DNA of 64,000 nucleotides, taken from positions 80,551 to 144,550 of the forward strand of contig CAKZMU010000009.1 in assembly GCA_937129145.1 (NCBI GenBank), in the 5' to 3' direction. The notes under the pieces were generated by a model. The model saw only the letters and a list, made by a program, of their open reading frames with translations. It was not told the origin of the DNA and did not search any database. Shown here one piece after another: positions 19,158 to 61,773 of the stretch. The DNA comes from an uncultured Lacinutrix sp. (GTDB lineage: Bacteria > Bacteroidota > Bacteroidia > Flavobacteriales > Flavobacteriaceae). The translations under genes were made by a program, and so were the position numbers. The first letter of the stretch is position 1. Each line of letters starts with the position of its first letter.

Positions 19158-19994
19158 ATGACTGTCAAAAAAAACATATTAATTCTAGGAAAACACGACA
19201 AACCCATTCTAACCGATTTATATTATTTAGAAGATGGTAAACCCAAACCCATCATAATATTTTGTCATGGGTATAAAGGTTTTAAAGATTGGGGAGCGTG
19301 GAATGTAATGGCAAAAGAATTTGCAACACAAGGATACTGTGTTATAAAATTCAATTTTGCTTATAATGGAGGAACTGTTGAGCAACCTATAGATTTTCCT
19401 AATTTAAATGCCTTTGGAAACAACAATTACACAAAAGAATTAGACGATTTAGACTCGGTACTTAATTGGGTTGAAGCTAATTTAAGTTCAAATAATAACA
19501 TAAACACTAACAATATTACACTTTTAGGTCACAGTCGAGGTGGCGGAATAGTGACCATTAAAGCTGAAGAAGATTCACGAATTTCTAACATAATTTCTCT
19601 AGCTGGAATATGCGATTTTGGTAAGCGAACTGCCACAATTGGAAACTTGGAAGAATGGAAAAAAGAGGGCGTTAAATATGTTTTAAATGGTCGTACTAAA
19701 CAGCAAATGCCACATTTTTATCAATTCTATGAAGATTTTGAGCAAAACAAAGAGCGTCTTACTATAAAAAGAGCTGCTTCAAATTTAAAAATCCCTCATT
19801 TAATCATACATGGAGACGCAGATACGTCCATAGCAATTGAAGAGGCAAAAAACCTCCATCAATGGAACCCTAAAAGTGAATTAAAAATTATTGAAGGTGC
19901 CAATCACGTGTTTAACACCAAACATCCTTGGGAAAGCAGCAAACTGTCTCCTGAACTAGAGACTGTTGTTAAATATATTTTGGATTTTTGTTAG
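19158..19994 (+). CDS. alpha/beta hydrolase
   Basis: Nucleophile elbow GHSRGG, with late D and H residues (HGDADT ... GANHVF). Confidence 0.7.
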   Translation: MTVKKNILILGKHDKPILTDLYYLEDGKPKPIIIFCHGYKGFKDWGAWNVMAKEFATQGYCVIKFNFAYNGGTVEQPIDFPNLNAFGNNNYTKELDDLDSVLNWVEANLSSNNNINTNNITLLGHSRGGGIVTIKAEEDSRISNIISLAGICDFGKRTATIGNLEEWKKEGVKYVLNGRTKQQMPHFYQFYEDFEQNKERLTIKRAASNLKIPHLIIHGDADTSIAIEEAKNLHQWNPKSELKIIEGANHVFNTKHPWESSKLSPELETVVKYILDFC

Positions 19995-20068
19995 TGGAGA
20001 AGATGGGATTCGAACCCACGACCTCTTGACTGCCAGTCAAGCGCTCTAGCCAACTGAGCTACATCCCC
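19995..20068 (-). tRNA. tRNA-Ala (anticodon GGC)
   Basis: The reverse complement folds as a cloverleaf: acceptor GGGGATG with G3:U70, D arm GCTC/GAGC, anticodon loop CTGGCAG, and T arm GTGGG-TTCGAAT-CCCAT. Stems are GC-rich. There is one T:T mismatch in the acceptor stem. Confidence 0.85.
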
Positions 20069-28951: not shown

Positions 28952-29497
28952 TTGAATAAAACAAACATGGAAAATAATTTACACAACAACTATGTCTTTA
29001 AAGCTATGGACGCATATCCATACGAGCTTGAAGAAACATTGGAAGCATTAAACTATGCTTTATCATATAACAATAAAGATGCGCAAGCATTATGCTTAAT
29101 GGGACGTGTTTATGCTGAACAATTAAAAGATTACGAAACAGCTAAACAATATTTTGCTGAAGCTATTGCGCAACACATGGAAATGCCAAAAACATATCCA
29201 TTTTATATCCAAACTTTATTATGGAATGGTGATTATGAAGAAGCAGATAAATTAATAACATTTGGACTAACTGTAAAGGGTACTGACAAAGCTTTATTAC
29301 AATTATTACAAGGTATTCTTTTTGAAAAACAGGGGGATTTTAAGGCTGCTATCAAGGCATATAAAAAAGCTAATAAAACAGCAACAAACAACTGCTTTAT
29401 TGAATATGTGAATAATGAAATATCTAGGGTTAAAAAGAAAATGGACCCCAGAAAGAAGAAGAAAAAGAAGTCTAACAAAAAAAGAAAGGGGAAATAA
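28952..29497 (+). CDS. TPR-like protein with poly-lysine C-terminal tail
   Basis: 181 aa with TPR-like helical repeats and the C-terminus PRKKKKKKSNKKRKGK. It is followed by the hairpin ATCGGCAA-TCTTGTC-TTGCCGAT. Confidence 0.55.
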   Translation: MNKTNMENNLHNNYVFKAMDAYPYELEETLEALNYALSYNNKDAQALCLMGRVYAEQLKDYETAKQYFAEAIAQHMEMPKTYPFYIQTLLWNGDYEEADKLITFGLTVKGTDKALLQLLQGILFEKQGDFKAAIKAYKKANKTATNNCFIEYVNNEISRVKKKMDPRKKKKKKSNKKRKGK

Positions 29498-29529
29498 AAA
29501 AATCGGCAATCTTGTCTTGCCGATTTAAT

Positions 29530-29613
29530 GGGAACTCGTCAACGTTGGAGAGTTGGTGCAGATTGTAAACCTGTTGCTTAAATGCTAAGAAAGTTCGAAT
29601 CTTTCAGTTCCCA
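29530..29613 (+). tRNA. tRNA-Tyr-like (anticodon GTA), class II, slightly non-canonical
   Basis: Acceptor GGGAACT/AGTTCCC, anticodon loop TTGTAAA, variable arm CTTA-AATGC-TAAG, and T arm GAAAG-TTCGAAT-CTTTC. Anomalies are C at position 8 and an A.C pair closing the anticodon stem. Confidence 0.7.
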
Positions 29614-29627
29614 CAAATAAATAGATT

Positions 29628-29700
29628 GACAAGGTGGCTGAACGGTTAAGGCAACAGACTGCAAATCTGTTTTTTGTGAGTTCAAATCTCACCCTTGTCT
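29628..29700 (+). tRNA. tRNA-Cys (anticodon GCA)
   Basis: Acceptor GACAAGG/CCTTGTC, anticodon arm ACAGA-CTGCAAA-TCTGT, T arm GTGAG-TTCAAAT-CTCAC, and discriminator U as expected for Cys. Confidence 0.85.
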
Positions 29701-29706
29701 CAAAAT

Positions 29707-29779
29707 AGTATCGTAGCTCAATGGCTAGAGCGCTCGGTTGTCTCCCGAGAAGTTGCGGGTTCGAATCTCGTCGGTACTG
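29707..29779 (+). tRNA. tRNA-Asp (anticodon GTC)
   Basis: Acceptor AGTATCG/CGGTACT, D arm GCTC/GAGC, anticodon arm CTCGG-TTGTCTC-CCGAG, T arm GCGGG-TTCGAAT-CTCGT, and discriminator G. Confidence 0.85.
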
Positions 29780-29780
29780 C

Positions 29781-29844
29781 GAAGCAGTTTAAGAGATGAG
29801 AAGTTTACCCTGAGCGTAGTCGAAGGGAATCTTGTCGGTACTGC
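29781..29844 (+). repeat. conserved 46-nt tRNA-trailer element (copy A) plus an 18-nt duplicate of the tRNA-Asp 3' end
   Basis: 29781-29826 is GAAGCAGTTTAAGAGATGAGAAGTTTACCCTGAGCGTAGTCGAAGG. 29827-29844 (GAATCTTGTCGGTACTGC) repeats 29763-29780 with 1 mismatch. The core matches copy B at 30181-30226. Confidence 0.8.
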
Positions 29845-29848
29845 AAAT

Positions 29849-29931
29849 CTGGGAGGATAATCCCGAAGGTTCGGGAGTGGTTTACTCGCTTTGGAAGCGA
29901 GAGGTTGTAGGTTCAAATCCTACCTCTCAGA
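29849..29931 (+). tRNA. tRNA-Pro-like (anticodon TGG) with a hairpin insertion in the D-loop
   Basis: Acceptor CTGGGAG/CTCTCAG (C1:G72 and A73, as in bacterial tRNA-Pro), anticodon arm CTCGC-TTTGGAA-GCGAG, and T arm GTAGG-TTCAAAT-CCTAC. The D region is about 10 nt too long because of the hairpin TCCCGAAGGTTCGGGA (29861-29876). Confidence 0.6.
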
Positions 29932-29937
29932 CAAAAT

Positions 29938-30009
29938 ACTCCGTTAGTCAAATGGCTAAGACGCCTGACTTTCTATCAGGAATTAAGGGTTCAATTCCCT
30001 TACGGAGTA
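29938..30009 (+). tRNA. tRNA-Glu (anticodon TTC)
   Basis: Acceptor ACTCCGT/ACGGAGT, anticodon arm CCTGA-CTTTCTA-TCAGG, and T arm AAGGG-TTCAATT-CCCTT. Confidence 0.8.
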
Positions 30010-30014
30010 CACAT

Positions 30015-30100
30015 TGAGATATAGCTTAATTGGTAGAGCGTCGCTCTCATAAGGCGAATGGTTTAGGTTCTCCCGATAGTTATCGGGACTAATATCTCAA
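30015..30100 (+). tRNA. tRNA-Met/Ile2-like (anticodon CAT) with a hairpin insertion in the T-loop
   Basis: Acceptor TGAGATA/TATCTCA, D arm GCTT/GAGC, and anticodon arm TCGCT-CTCATAA-GGCGA. The T-stem is TTAG(G)/(A)CTAA, but the T-loop is TTC followed by the 18-nt hairpin TCCCGATAGTTATCGGGA (30071-30088). Confidence 0.55.
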
Positions 30101-30106
30101 CAACAC

Positions 30107-30179
30107 GCAGGAATGGCGAAACGGCAAACGCACTCGACTTAGAATCGAGAAACTGGGAGTTCGAATCTCTCTTCCTGTA
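30107..30179 (+). tRNA. tRNA-Leu-like (anticodon TAG) with a short (5-nt) variable loop
   Basis: Acceptor GCAGGAA/TTCCTGT, a class-II-like D arm (TGGCGAAACGGCAAACGC), anticodon arm CTCGA-CTTAGAA-TCGAG, variable region of only AAACT, and T arm GGGAG-TTCGAAT-CTCTC. Confidence 0.65.
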
Positions 30180-30180
30180 C

Positions 30181-30246
30181 GAAGTAAGGAAAGAGATGAG
30201 AAGTTTATGCTGAGCGAAGTCGAAGTGAATCTCTCTTCCTGTACGA
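30181..30246 (+). repeat. conserved 46-nt tRNA-trailer element (copy B) plus a 20-nt duplicate of the tRNA-Leu(TAG) 3' end
   Basis: 30181-30226 is GAAGTAAGGAAAGAGATGAGAAGTTTATGCTGAGCGAAGTCGAAGT. 30227-30246 (GAATCTCTCTTCCTGTACGA) exactly repeats 30163-30182. Confidence 0.8.
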
Positions 30247-30247
30247 T

Positions 30248-30321
30248 GCTCCACTAGCCCAAATGGAAGAGGCAACAGTTTTAAGCGCTGTTAAGTCCAA
30301 GTTCGAATCTTGGGTGGAGTA
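30248..30321 (+). tRNA. tRNA-Leu-like (anticodon TAA) with a short variable loop
   Basis: Acceptor GCTCCAC/GTGGAGT (G1:U72), anticodon arm ACAGT-TTTAAGC-GCTGT (alternatively AACAG/CTGTT with a 9-nt loop), variable TAAGT, and T arm CCAAG-TTCGAAT-CTTGG. Confidence 0.6.
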
Positions 30322-30327
30322 CAAAAT

Positions 30328-30451
30328 AAGCTTATGGTGTAATGGAAAGCACACAAGGTTTAGCTCATGCATATCTATTTCAAGAAATAGGTATTCGTGA
30401 ATGCAAAGCATTTCGAACCTTGGAGTATGGGTTCAAGTCCTATTAAGCTTA
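30328..30451 (+). tRNA. tRNA-like gene (probably Arg, anticodon TCG) with a 52-nt insertion in the anticodon loop
   Basis: Acceptor AAGCTTA/TAAGCTT, D arm GTGT/GCAC, anticodon stem CAAGG (30354-58) / CCTTG (30418-22) enclosing 59 nt, and T arm ATGGG-TTCAAGT-CCTAT. The last 7 loop nt, TTTCGAA, form a canonical loop. The insert at 30359-30410 contains the hairpin CTATTTC-AAG-GAAATAG. Confidence 0.55.
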
Positions 30452-30456
30452 CAAAA

Positions 30457-30527
30457 TAACCTGTGGTGTAACGGTAACACTCAAGATTTTGATTCTTGTA
30501 TTATAGGTTCGAATCCTATCAGGTTAT
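30457..30527 (+). tRNA. tRNA-Gln (anticodon TTG)
   Basis: Acceptor TAACCTG/CAGGTTA, D arm GTGT/ACAC, anticodon arm CAAGA-TTTTGAT-TCTTG, and T arm ATAGG-TTCGAAT-CCTAT. Confidence 0.8.
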
Positions 30528-30535
30528 CAAAAAAT

Positions 30536-30608
30536 GGAACAGTAGCAAAGTTGGTCAATGCGTCGGACTGAAAATCTGAAAATACAGGTTCAATTCCTGT
30601 CTGTTCCA
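30536..30608 (+). tRNA. tRNA-Phe (anticodon GAA)
   Basis: Acceptor GGAACAG/CTGTTCC, anticodon arm TCGGA-CTGAAAA-TCTGA, and T arm ACAGG-TTCAATT-CCTGT. Confidence 0.82.
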
Positions 30609-30768
30609 CTAAAATTAAAGATTCCTGCCTATGCAGGAAATAATATCAAGCTGGTCTTGTTGAGTGTTTCGGTATAGCACTATTGTATAAATCGTTGCAG
30701 AAATGCATCATGAGTTTATGTTCAACTAGACTTGAAGGTTTTGACTGTTAACCAAAAAATGGTCTCCC

Positions 30769-30803
30769 CCTATAGGTCGTGGGTTCGACTCCCACTTATC
30801 CCA
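30769..30803 (+). pseudogene. orphan tRNA 3' half (anticodon-stem 3' strand, variable loop, T arm, acceptor 3' strand)
   Basis: CCTAT-AGGTC-GTGGG-TTCGACT-CCCAC-TTATCCC-A. No matching 5' half lies upstream. The complementary 5' half lies 3 nt downstream. Confidence 0.6.
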
Positions 30804-30806
30804 ATT

Positions 30807-30873
30807 GGGATAGTAGTTCAGTGGTTAGAACAATAGGATGTAGGTGTTGCTGGTTCGATTCCAGTCGTTTGCT
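30807..30873 (+). pseudogene. tRNA 5' half (acceptor 5' strand, D arm, anticodon-stem 5' strand) fused to an unrelated T arm and acceptor 3' strand
   Basis: GGGATAG-TA-GTTC-AGTGGTTA-GAAC-A-ATAGG is followed by ATGTAGGTGTT, then GCTGG-TTCGATT-CCAGT-CGTTTGC. The acceptor strands within this unit do not pair. GGGATAG and ATAGG pair perfectly with the upstream fragment at 30769-30803. Confidence 0.55.
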
Positions 30874-30888
30874 TGGAGAAATTCCTTG

Positions 30889-30950
30889 GCAATAGTAGCT
30901 CAATTGGTAGAGCACTGCACTTTTAATGCAGGTTTGGACTCAAAATCCAC
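30889..30950 (+). pseudogene. tRNA-Lys-like (anticodon TTT) fragment lacking a matching acceptor 3' strand
   Basis: GCAATAG-TA-GCTC-AATTGGTA-GAGC-A-CTGCA-CTTTTAA-TGCAG is followed by a degenerate T arm (TGGA-CTCAAAA-TCCA). No CTATTGC-like 3' strand lies downstream. Confidence 0.5.
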
Positions 30951-31450
30951 AATCAAAAGCCCATCATCTTTTAAAACTGATGACCAACGCAGATTGTCAT
31001 TCTGCTCAACAAAAATGACAAAAATAGTAGATTGCAAGTCGGCTTTAGATTCCTGCATTACTGACGCATCGGTCAACACTGGTCGTGGGAATGACAAAAC
31101 TAGAGCAGTCTTGAAAGTGCCTTGAAATACTGATTTTTAATAGTAGAAGTGGTTACTGTTTTGTAATAAGAAATTATATAAATCTGATTATCGATTCATA
31201 TAGTTGTCACAATACTCAGCACTAATTACAGGCACTATTAATATGAGTATTTCCGCACCAGAAAAATGATTTGCTTTCTGCTATTTTTAACAATGAAGAG
31301 ATATAAAAATATACTTCAATTAATGATGAACTCGTCATTGTTTTTTGAAGTTGGTAAGCCTTCCGTTACAAGAATTGCCGCCACGCTCAAAAATGGGCAA
31401 CAATAAATGTTTAATCTTCCTGAAATAAATTCAGGATAAAAAAATTAGAA

Positions 31451-32551
31451 ATGATGAAACGAGTAAGAATTAATGTTGGAGAAGTAGGATTGGTTTTCAA
31501 AAGAGGTGATTACAAAAGAGTAATTACTCAAGGAAAAAACTGGTTAGGGTTTGGCGAGCGTGTTTTAACCTATAACTTAGCTCATGCTTTCGTTGCTCCA
31601 AAAACACTAGAACTCTTGCTAAAAGACGAGGTGTTGGAGGCAATGTTAGACATTATTGAAGTAAAGGATGGTGAACTTGTATTGGTTTACGAAAAAGGGA
31701 GCTTTAAAACTGTTTTAACTGCTGGTCGTTATGTGTACTGGAAGGGTTTGATTAATCGTGAATATACACGCGTTGATTTAAGCAAAATTTATATTACTGA
31801 AAACATTGACAAAGCATTGTTTAGTAACTATGAATTAAGCAAATACATTCGAGTTTTTGAAGTAGCTGCTTACGAAAAAGCTATCCTTTTGGTAGATGAT
31901 GTATATACAAAGACGCTTGACGGCGGTACATACCGATTCTGGAGAAATGATACCACAATTAAAATTGCTAAGGCTGATTTACGTCAGTTACAACTAGAAA
32001 TTGCTGGACAAGAATTGTTAACTAAAGATAAAGCAGCTATTCGTATCAACTTTTACACACAGTATAAAGTAACAGATATTGAAAAGGCTTTACTAGGAAA
32101 CAAAGATTATGAAAAGCAATTATACATTGCTATGCAATTGGTATTGCGCGCTTACATTGGTACTTACACACTAGATGAATTGCTAGAGCGTAAAGAAAAC
32201 ATTGCAGAAGCTGTATTTGAAGATGTTAAAGCAAGTGCATCAAAATTAGGTGTAAGCGTTTTAAGCTGCGGTATTAGAGATGTGATTTTAACCGGAGATA
32301 TGAAAGAGATTATGAACCAGGTTTTAGTTGCACAAAAGAAAGCGCAAGCAAATACAATTACAAGACGTGAAGAAACAGCTTCTACTCGTAGCTTGCTAAA
32401 TACGGCAAAGTTGATGGAAGAGAATAACATGCTGTACAAGCTAAAAGAAATGGAGTATGTTGAAAAAATCGCTGAGAAAATTGGTGAAATCACAGTCTCA
32501 GGTAATGGTGGAATGGTAACACAATTGAAAGAGATTTTCTCTGGAAAATAA
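31451..32551 (+). CDS. slipin/SPFH (band-7) family protein
   Basis: 366 aa. The C-terminal half has an SPFH-like core and a coiled-coil (QKKAQANTITRREETASTR). Confidence 0.7.
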   Translation: MMKRVRINVGEVGLVFKRGDYKRVITQGKNWLGFGERVLTYNLAHAFVAPKTLELLLKDEVLEAMLDIIEVKDGELVLVYEKGSFKTVLTAGRYVYWKGLINREYTRVDLSKIYITENIDKALFSNYELSKYIRVFEVAAYEKAILLVDDVYTKTLDGGTYRFWRNDTTIKIAKADLRQLQLEIAGQELLTKDKAAIRINFYTQYKVTDIEKALLGNKDYEKQLYIAMQLVLRAYIGTYTLDELLERKENIAEAVFEDVKASASKLGVSVLSCGIRDVILTGDMKEIMNQVLVAQKKAQANTITRREETASTRSLLNTAKLMEENNMLYKLKEMEYVEKIAEKIGEITVSGNGGMVTQLKEIFSGK

Positions 32552-61698: not shown

Positions 61699-61712
61699 GT
61701 GGTCCCACTTGG
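61699..61712. repeat. 14-bp repeat (tRNA-proximal copy) overlapping the tRNA(CAT) 3' end
   Basis: GTGGTCCCACTTGG is identical to 51936-51949. Confidence 0.6.
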
Positions 61713-61773
61713 GCTCGAACCAAGGACCCTCTGATTATGAGTCAGATGCTCTAACCAACTGAGCTATGGGACC
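61700..61773 (-). tRNA. tRNA with anticodon CAT (elongator Met or Ile2/lysidine type)
   Basis: The reverse complement reads GGTCCCA-TA-GCTC-AGTTGGTTA-GAGC-A-TCTGA-CTCATAA-TCAGA-GGGTC-CTTGG-TTCGAGC-CCAAG-TGGGACC-A. The cloverleaf is GC-rich and canonical, and is followed on the minus strand by a terminator hairpin. Confidence 0.88.

Follow-up and report, generated by a model that had tools for sequence, protein, structure and literature searches.

Can a bacterial tRNA that lacks the long variable arm be a genuine tRNA-Leu? Bacterial tRNA-Leu usually carries such an arm. The question is raised by two neighbouring genes with the Leu anticodons UAG and UAA in a 64,000-nucleotide (nt) stretch of DNA from an uncultured Lacinutrix sp. 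of the Flavobacteriaceae (contig CAKZMU010000009.1, positions 80,551 to 144,550, forward strand), hereafter called the window. A first-pass annotation had noticed the missing arms and had offered three readings, namely mis-assigned identity, decoys, or tRNAs charged by a non-standard route. The anomaly proved to be real and none of the three readings is favoured; the tRNA array around the genes, a long-arm tRNA-Tyr within it and a 64-nt element between the two genes had been overlooked. As argued below, both genes are probably (at about 0.75) functional leucine isoacceptors of a phage-type tRNA-Leu family that lost the long arm.

Two tRNA-Leu genes without a long variable arm

The two genes are located as follows.

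30107..30180, + strand: tRNA-Leu(UAG), 74 nt, ending in N73-C74 without an encoded CCA
30248..30322, + strand: tRNA-Leu(UAA), 75 nt

Both were called by ARAGORN and by Rfam, whose tRNA model matched Leu(UAG) with 66.6 bits (E=1e-13) and Leu(UAA) with 49.9 bits (E=4e-9), each from end to end. The variable loops are exactly 5 nt, AAACU in Leu(UAG) and UAAGU in Leu(UAA), just as the first-pass annotation had read them (AAACT and TAAGT), and the conflict with the usual rule is thus genuine. Neither gene has the long variable arm (at least 10 nt) of canonical bacterial tRNA-Leu; both have the features of a type I tRNA-Leu, that is, a Leu anticodon, a variable loop of 4-5 nt and an otherwise complete cloverleaf. 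The second gene had been ended at 30321. The discriminator A73 does sit there, but C74 follows at 30322.

Both genes share G1.U72 and A73. Leu(UAG) has a 3-bp D-stem, the D-loop AAACGGCAAA and the anticodon loop CUUAGAA with A37, while Leu(UAA) has the D-arm UAGCCCAAAUGGAAGAGGC and the anticodon loop UUUAAGC with G37. The two are confirmed as intact, well-formed tRNA-Leu genes that truly lack the long variable arm.

Selection on the short-arm cloverleaf

The comparison set comprised 80 syntenic marine Flavobacteriaceae loci, found via the SPFH protein encoded next to the tRNA array in which the two genes lie. Covariation was assessed on alignments of 34 distinct Leu(UAG) and 26 distinct Leu(UAA) sequences from related arrays. 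In the Leu(UAG) family the cloverleaf without a long arm was 99.3% paired, and 13 of its 20 pairs had changes in both partners; in the Leu(UAA) family it was 96.3% paired, and 18 of the 20 pairs had changes in both partners. None of 500 shuffles matched the observed pairing and covariation values in either family, and pairing fell to 28-68% when the 3' partner was slid as a control. The invariant columns were U8, A14, A15, G18G19, A20a, U33, the anticodon, U48, the T-loop, A73 and C74. Length was also kept, at 74-75 nt in 41 of 46 UAG genes and 30 of 33 UAA genes. Purifying selection acts on the cloverleaf without the long arm, and both genes are real, constrained tRNAs.

The second gene can also be drawn with a 9-nt anticodon loop, as had been remarked from the letters. 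Pair 31:39 of Leu(UAA) is U.G in the window, and in the relatives it is GC (12 sequences), AU (5), UG (5), UA (2) or CG (1). Because this pair covaries, the anticodon loop is 7 nt and the 9-nt alternative was ruled out.

These results also bear on the idea that the genes are decaying pseudogenes from an old phage or mobile-element insertion. It could draw on the disrupted state of neighbouring genes in the window genome, and on the phage tRNAs that are the closest sequenced relatives (see below). But in both families, over at least 15 genera, all stems are maintained by compensatory substitutions, and each gene differs from its orthologue in the sister species, Gaetbulibacter, by a single D-loop base. 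Decay is hence hardly credible.

A phage-associated family of short-arm tRNA-Leu

Viral contigs were scanned with a pattern that combined the D-arm signature with short-arm spacing and left the anticodon free. The family signature was UAGCCCAAHUGGNAGAGGC (UGGCGRAA..GG.A.ACGC for the UAG type), with 26-28 nt from the D-arm to G53, and A73. The D-arm and spacing pattern, which the window Leu(UAA) also fits, matched more than 120 viral contigs with 127 tRNAs. Leu anticodons (UAG, CAA, UAA, CAG, AAG and GAG, covering the UUR and CUN boxes) were found in 125 of the 127, and A73 in 114. Since the six anticodon types on one body share leucine alone, the body is tied to leucine regardless of the anticodon.

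The closest sequenced relatives of the Leu and Cys genes of the array are phage tRNAs. The window Leu(UAG) is 83% identical to tRNA-Leu(UAG) of the T5-like Vibrio phage VspSw_1, which has an identical acceptor stem, a 5-nt loop and nearly the same D and T arms; in this phage the UAG and UAA genes are adjacent, as in the array. The window Leu(UAA) gave full-length matches of about 76% to annotated tRNA-Leu genes of 74-78 nt in many phages (Schitoviridae, Demerecviridae, Ounavirinae, Otagovirus and Streptomyces phages). Phage T5 itself keeps a short arm (85 nt). A near-identity search of the region against phage records gave no match.

Short tRNA-Leu genes are carried by Vibrio phage VspSw_1, Pectobacterium phage My1, Citrobacter phage Michonne, Moogle-like phage Sf14, Pseudomonas phage PPSC2, Sulfitobacter phage phiCB2047-B and Streptomyces phage JPandJE. 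Like the window genes, they have mostly G1.U72, A73, a Leu-type D-arm and a 5-nt variable loop, and often A37 together with the UAG anticodon. The phage copies often encode CCA (62 of 127 in the viral-contig set), whereas the chromosomal array copies end at C74 like host genes. The family is phage-associated, and the array copies are in host gene style. In the literature we found no comment on the missing arm of these phage tRNAs, which are annotated simply as tRNA-Leu.

Probable leucine identity

Both window genes have the discriminator A73, as do 76 of the 79 Leu genes from the arrays. The Leu-type core, consisting of U8:A14, A15:U48, G18G19, A20a, U54:A58 and a 3-bp D-stem, is complete and invariant. 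As most array isotypes have A15:U48, this pair was dropped as a Leu-specific mark. For Escherichia coli leucyl-tRNA synthetase (LeuRS), A73 and the elements U8:A14, A15:U48, G18G19, A20a and U54:A58 are crucial, the anticodon and the long arm are not, and arm-less tRNA-Leu variants stay active (PMC9976931). Other synthetases of the A73 type read anticodon bases that are absent in both window genes (PMC9976931, together with the sequence).

Leu(UAG) aligned better to E. coli leuW than to seven other E. coli tRNAs, with a 12-nt gap required at the variable arm. Its D-arm TGGCGAAACGGCAAACGC, with a 3-bp stem and an A13/A22 mismatch, is collinear with that of leuW (TGGCGAAATTGGTAGACGC); what had been described as a Leu/Ser/Tyr-type D-arm is therefore of the Leu type. 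The D-arm of Leu(UAA) has the same length as that of E. coli leuZ, a tRNA-Leu(UAA) that has G1.U72 and A73 like both window genes. When each Leu gene was run by BLAST against every E. coli genome, no match was returned; against 28 Gb, a query of 74 nt is too short to reach significance.

Long-armed kin on the same backbone were found among the relatives. Two Tenacibaculum species (loci L064 and L069) have an 83-nt Leu(UAG) with a 13-nt arm, whose acceptor, D and T arms are the same as in the short-arm orthologues, and one Winogradskyella array (L080) has a long-armed Leu(UAA) of 87 nt. The isotype-model check suggested in the first-pass annotation has been published for a Moogle-like phage, where the tRNAscan-SE models placed Leu on top for all three Leu tRNAs (PMC12482277); Citrobacter phage Michonne, of the same genus, has two short-arm Leu genes.

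Might the tRNAs read Leu codons and carry another amino acid, as do the yeast mitochondrial tRNA-Thr(UAG) and the Ashbya tRNA-Ala(UAG)? A class I shape with a Leu anticodon is the look of known reassignment tRNAs (PMC7609411), and position 37 is non-canonical in the window genes. The hallmarks of codon reassignment, G3:U70 for Ala and an enlarged 8-nt anticodon loop, are nevertheless absent: pair 3:70 is A-U in Leu(UAG) and U-A in Leu(UAA), and the 7-nt loop is secured by the covarying pair 31:39. A73 and the Leu-type D-arm also argue against recoding, as do the long-armed kin and the restriction of the body to all six Leu anticodons and little else. Moreover, TTA makes up 4.8% of all codons in the window, so misreading would be catastrophic. 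Mis-assigned identity is thus unlikely on all these counts, and recoding of this kind is very improbable.

Both tRNAs would then be charged with leucine by the host LeuRS in the ordinary way. The enzyme would recognise A73, the tertiary elements and the Leu-type D-arm, with the long arm dispensable, and on the ribosome the UAG and UAA tRNAs would read CUA/CUN and UUA/UUG, respectively. There is no need to invoke a non-standard charging route, since E. coli LeuRS makes no use of the long arm. The most likely mechanism is therefore an ordinary one, in which genuine Leu tRNAs lost a dispensable arm.

Retention of the arm in tRNA-Ser and tRNA-Tyr

The array itself contains an internal control for the class II architecture.

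29530..29614, + strand: tRNA-Tyr(GUA), 85 nt, with a long variable arm

In related arrays, tRNA-Ser (86-92 nt) and tRNA-Tyr (83-86 nt) keep their long arms throughout. In viral loci that had been chosen for having a short Leu, long arms were seen in 61 of 62 Ser and 26 of 27 Tyr genes, and 188 of 231 Leu genes were short. Bacterial seryl-tRNA synthetase (SerRS) relies on the long variable arm, and bacterial tyrosyl-tRNA synthetase (TyrRS) does likewise. The arm was presumably lost in Leu and not in the Ser and Tyr genes of the same arrays because SerRS and TyrRS need it and LeuRS does not.

The tRNA array and its chromosomal context

The two Leu genes belong to a dense array of about 12 tRNA genes on the same strand, with 11 genes in 1.08 kb. 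The array, its flanks and its other members of note are as follows.

28952-29497: TPR gene, upstream flank of the array
29530..30609, + strand: tRNA array with Tyr, Cys, Asp, Pro (interrupted), Glu, Met (interrupted), Leu-UAG, Leu-UAA, Arg (interrupted), Gln and Phe
29707-29780, + strand: tRNA-Asp
29849..29932, + strand: tRNA-Pro(UGG), D-loop replaced or extended by the hairpin UCCCGAAGGUUCGGGA; Rfam 36.3 bits, D-arm skipped
30015..30101, + strand: tRNA-Met(CAU)-like gene, T-loop GAUUC replaced by the hairpin UCCCGAUAGUUAUCGGGA (30071-30088); Rfam 30.6 bits, partial
30328..30452, + strand: tRNA-Arg, with a 52-nt insert in the anticodon loop (about 30360-30411)
30734..30955, + strand: degenerate tRNA-like segments, T-arm and acceptor fragments with three weak Rfam hits (tRNA, YrlA, tmRNA)
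31451-32551: SPFH/Band_7 gene, downstream flank of the array
19994-20068 and 61699-61773, - strand: tRNA-Ala-GGC and tRNA-Met-CAU, two non-array tRNAs ending in N73-C74 without an encoded CCA

The flanking genes encode proteins with type IX secretion system (T9SS) sorting domains, BatD, RecJ, a biotin carboxylase and the SPFH protein, at about 34% G+C. The locus is part of a Bacteroidota chromosome, not a phage. The closest SPFH protein is that of Gaetbulibacter sp. S0825 (92%).

The stretch upstream of the SPFH gene could be assessed in 72 loci; 48 of them, from at least 15 genera, have at least five tRNA genes there, and this conserved position argues for vertical descent. Among the 72 loci, a 74-75-nt Leu(UAG) was found in 37, a 75-nt Leu(UAA) in 27 and both in 24. 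The content of the array is patchy within genera, and its Leu and Cys genes resemble phage genes. Gene number ranges from 0 to 17 in Tenacibaculum, from 1 to 15 in Winogradskyella and from 1 to 17 in Aquimarina. Because the number varies from none to 17 within genera, the array is accessory. We found no description of this Flavobacteriaceae array in the literature.

An alternative is that the short Leu genes are not accessory at all, and do the main, housekeeping work of decoding UUA and CUA. Leucine is encoded most often by TTA in the window (48.8% of Leu codons), and the array is an old, syntenic part of the chromosome. Its genes also end in N73-C74 without CCA like the housekeeping tRNA-Ala and tRNA-Met of the window, so that a CCA-adding enzyme appears to complete 3' ends throughout this genome. 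Against this, UUA and CUA must still be decoded in close relatives of the same genus in which the array, or at least one of the two short Leu genes, is missing, and array genes are often interrupted. We thus consider a principal housekeeping role unlikely. As all relatives must decode both codons, some of them without the array, the array copies would be additional to other tRNA-Leu genes, and canonical long-arm tRNA-Leu(UAA) and tRNA-Leu(UAG) genes probably lie elsewhere in the genome.

The accessory character of the array could equally suit tRNA-like RNAs that take no part in translation and act as decoys or sponges for tRNA-targeting nucleases, or as regulators. Odd anticodon-loop bases would fit the same idea: U37 was found in 51 of 51 tRNA-Asp and 41 of 41 tRNA-Glu array genes, where the phage counterparts checked have a purine. 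So would the weak 1:72 pairs, which are G.U or A-U in Leu, Glu, Arg and Asp, and the T5 tRNA region also encodes tRNA-like stable RNAs. However, the anticodon and U33 of the Leu genes are invariant across genera although LeuRS ignores the anticodon, and a decoy would have no need of a codon-matched anticodon. The discriminator bases follow the isotype rules in nearly every array member, and all tertiary-pair positions are conserved. The decoy role proposed in the first-pass annotation is accordingly improbable, and the same applies to a regulatory role.

Some further observations concern the array as a whole. Position 37 is mostly A in Leu(UAG) and Pro and mostly G in Leu(UAA) and Phe. The three interrupted genes, which can be recognised only when small insertions are permitted, are uninterrupted in the sister species, with an intact tRNA-Pro of 73 nt, an intact tRNA-Met(CAU)-like gene and a tRNA-Arg(ACG); relative to Gaetbulibacter (L003), all three insertions fall in tRNA loops, and the hairpins in the Pro D-loop and the Met T-loop are similar (UCCCGA..UCGGGA). 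In other arrays (L006, L009-L012, L018-L020 and L022), genes of 71-74 nt were called with A34 anticodons (e.g. L011 7929-8000), among them Tyr(AUA) with the loop GUAUAUC and U73, Phe(AAA) and Asp(AUC). In some Winogradskyella species one such gene is the sole tRNA left at the locus.

At 29500-29526, 3 nt upstream of the first array gene, a 10-bp hairpin (AAAUCGGCAA..UUGCCGAUUU) is identical in Gaetbulibacter though the sequence upstream of it differs there; it has a terminator score on the minus strand. It may belong to the end of the TPR gene, serve as a leader of the array or mark the boundary of the module. At the other end (30643-30955), about 150 nt after tRNA-Phe are conserved with Gaetbulibacter and end in a T-arm and acceptor 3' strand (..GUGGGUUCGACUCCCACUUAUCCCA). 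The matching acceptor 5' strand and D-arm (GGGAUAGUAGUUCAGUGGUUAGAAC) follow directly, so that the 3' half precedes the 5' half. This region may be debris; it may also encode an RNA that is permuted or resembles a tRNA, similar to the tRNA-like stable RNAs of T5.

Several points weigh against the two genes being functional leucine isoacceptors. Removal of the long arm lowers the affinity for Aquifex LeuRS, and the type I tRNA-Leu of Streptomyces coelicolor is not charged by E. coli LeuRS (PMC6614811); charging by the host LeuRS is thus not guaranteed. Position 37 departs from the canonical base in both genes (A37 in Leu(UAG) versus G37 in E. coli leuW, and G37 in Leu(UAA) versus A37 in leuZ), which could affect decoding. 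A sigma-70 promoter scan at the array gave nothing above the shuffled expectation, Bacteroidota promoters being outside its scope. The three interrupted neighbours suggest relaxed selection on the whole array, and the long-arm tRNA-Leu genes expected elsewhere in the genome are deduced from the codon need of relatives without the array.

A 64-nt element at tRNA 3' ends

Between the two Leu genes lies a 64-nt element, a second copy of which follows tRNA-Asp.

30181..30244, + strand: 64-nt element between the Leu genes; covariance model 75.1 bits; absent from the sister species
29781..29844, + strand: second copy, directly after tRNA-Asp; 81.8 bits; its end nearly repeats the 3' end of tRNA-Asp

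Relative to Gaetbulibacter both copies are insertions, one after Asp and one after Leu(UAG). They share GAAG, a stretch complementary to the 3' end of the local tRNA, a conserved core and a copy of tRNA positions G57-C74. The copy at 30181-30244 reads GAAGU, the segment complementary to the tRNA 3' end, the core GAGAUGAGAAGUUUAUGCUGAGCGAAGUCGAAG and the tRNA-end copy, which is an exact repeat of the last 18 nt of tRNA-Leu(UAG), from G57 to C74.

With the covariance model, 16 Flavobacteriaceae loci yielded 22 confident copies. Of these, 19 follow Asp and 3 follow Leu(UAG), and some stand in tandem. No match was obtained in 100 phage or viral loci, nor in an exact-core scan of viral contigs, and a phage origin of the element was therefore dropped. 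The 20-nt core is present in more than 120 metagenome contigs (for example loci L218 1-560, L232 2660-3180, L221 and L226), behind at least 25 anticodon types. When an upstream tRNA was present, 76 of 102 metagenome copies repeated its last 14 nt, compared with 1 in the shuffled control.

Directly upstream of 12 of 132 metagenome copies we found an open reading frame (ORF) of 85-100 aa for a GIY-YIG nuclease (Pfam E = 1e-12 to 1e-16), and some of these ORFs have their stop codon inside the core. Neither window copy contains an ORF; hence they can at most be ORF-less derivatives of a GIY-YIG cassette. The window copies thus resemble miniature, ORF-less versions derived from a cassette that is linked to GIY-YIG genes and sits at tRNA 3' ends.

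Single-sequence folds of the element were no better than shuffles (z = -0.6 to -1.4), and its structure comes from comparative analysis only. Known ribozymes were considered and rejected. The theta ribozyme forms P1 from the first ~7 nt after the tRNA end within a nested double pseudoknot (PMC10879173). The core holds no complement to GAAGUAA or AAAGCAG and hence no P1 partner for a hepatitis delta virus (HDV)-like or theta ribozyme, nor does it have the C3U4...G8A9 bases of a hammerhead. Rfam gave no ribozyme match at E<=1 for hammerhead, HDV-like/theta, twister, pistol or hatchet. We found no description of the element in the searchable literature or in Rfam.

The nearest precedent for such a GIY-YIG/tRNA-end cassette is T4 SegB. 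Like the element family, the GIY-YIG enzyme SegB of T4 and the HNH homing endonucleases of T5 represent a small nuclease gene amid tRNA genes, and the T4 and T5 clusters likewise show tandem amplification of tRNA-containing segments (PMC2330249, PMC13096335). Unlike them, the element has an RNA-like core of ~33 nt, a complementary segment and a duplicated tRNA 3' end. Moreover, most of its copies are ORF-less, and the linked nuclease is a predicted one.

Comparison with known systems and possible role of the array

A bacterial precedent for a short-arm tRNA-Leu is the type I tRNA-Leu(CAA) of S. coelicolor, for which leucylation by the single LeuRS has been demonstrated experimentally (Fan et al., NAR 2019, PMC6614811). 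Like the window genes it is a bacterial, chromosomal tRNA that combines a Leu anticodon and a variable loop of small size, and it coexists with long-arm tRNA-Leu (PMC6614811). In Streptomyces, A73 is no identity element and charging hinges on a special LeuRS domain (PMC6614811). The window genes, by contrast, have the anticodons UAG and UAA, show strict conservation of A73, G1.U72 and a D-loop like that of E. coli, and belong to an accessory array and to a family shared with phages of many hosts. Animal mitochondrial tRNA-Leu also has a short variable loop, with identity conferred by A73 and A14 (PMC9976931); it is organellar and relaxed and is served by a dedicated LeuRS, whereas the window genes have a fully canonical D-loop/T-loop elbow.

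As for the array, the L-arrays exemplified by the Anabaena trn operon (PMC8421152) are similar in their dense, same-strand extra tRNA genes, isodecoder redundancy, patchy distribution and homing-endonuclease-type elements. L-arrays are horizontally spread and non-syntenic (PMC8421152), unlike the Flavobacteriaceae array with its one conserved position in many genera. The Anabaena L-array is induced under translational stress (PMC8421152).

More speculatively, the array might be a reserve set of tRNAs, and loss of the arm would remove the target of defence nucleases that cut there. Septu and retron-Eco7 cut E. coli tRNA-Tyr in the variable arm (PMC13096335), which suggests a selective reason for losing it. 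Escape of phage tRNAs from anticodon nucleases through altered anticodon-loop bases has also been proposed (PMC10264068). In the fullest form of this idea, arm loss in phage tRNA-Leu would be an adaptation against defence nucleases such as Septu and the PtuAB of retron-Eco7, which would cut class II tRNAs in that arm, and the Flavobacteriaceae would have domesticated a phage-derived reserve array that was remodelled by GIY-YIG-type elements. Leu alone could shed the arm, as LeuRS would not need it and SerRS and TyrRS would. The domesticated tRNAs, nuclease-proof and with altered position-37 bases and weak 1:72 pairs, would be retained at a single chromosomal locus. We regard this adaptation as a doubtful, though conceivable, explanation. 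The short-arm family also offers a concrete, testable connection to present research on tRNA-targeting immunity.

Significance

Bacterial type I tRNA-Leu has a published precedent; the novelty lies in the size of the family, its association with phages and its fixation in a conserved chromosomal array. The loss of the arm in Leu, together with its retention in Ser and Tyr of the same clusters, amounts to a natural experiment on synthetase recognition. A practical consequence for annotation is that a short tRNA-Leu in a phage or bacterial array should not be discarded as a pseudogene or mis-call. The textbook rule is thereby corrected, since short-arm tRNA-Leu extends beyond animal mitochondria and one Streptomyces tRNA to a large family in phages of many hosts, and is also a fixed chromosomal feature of the Flavobacteriaceae, a major family of marine bacteria.

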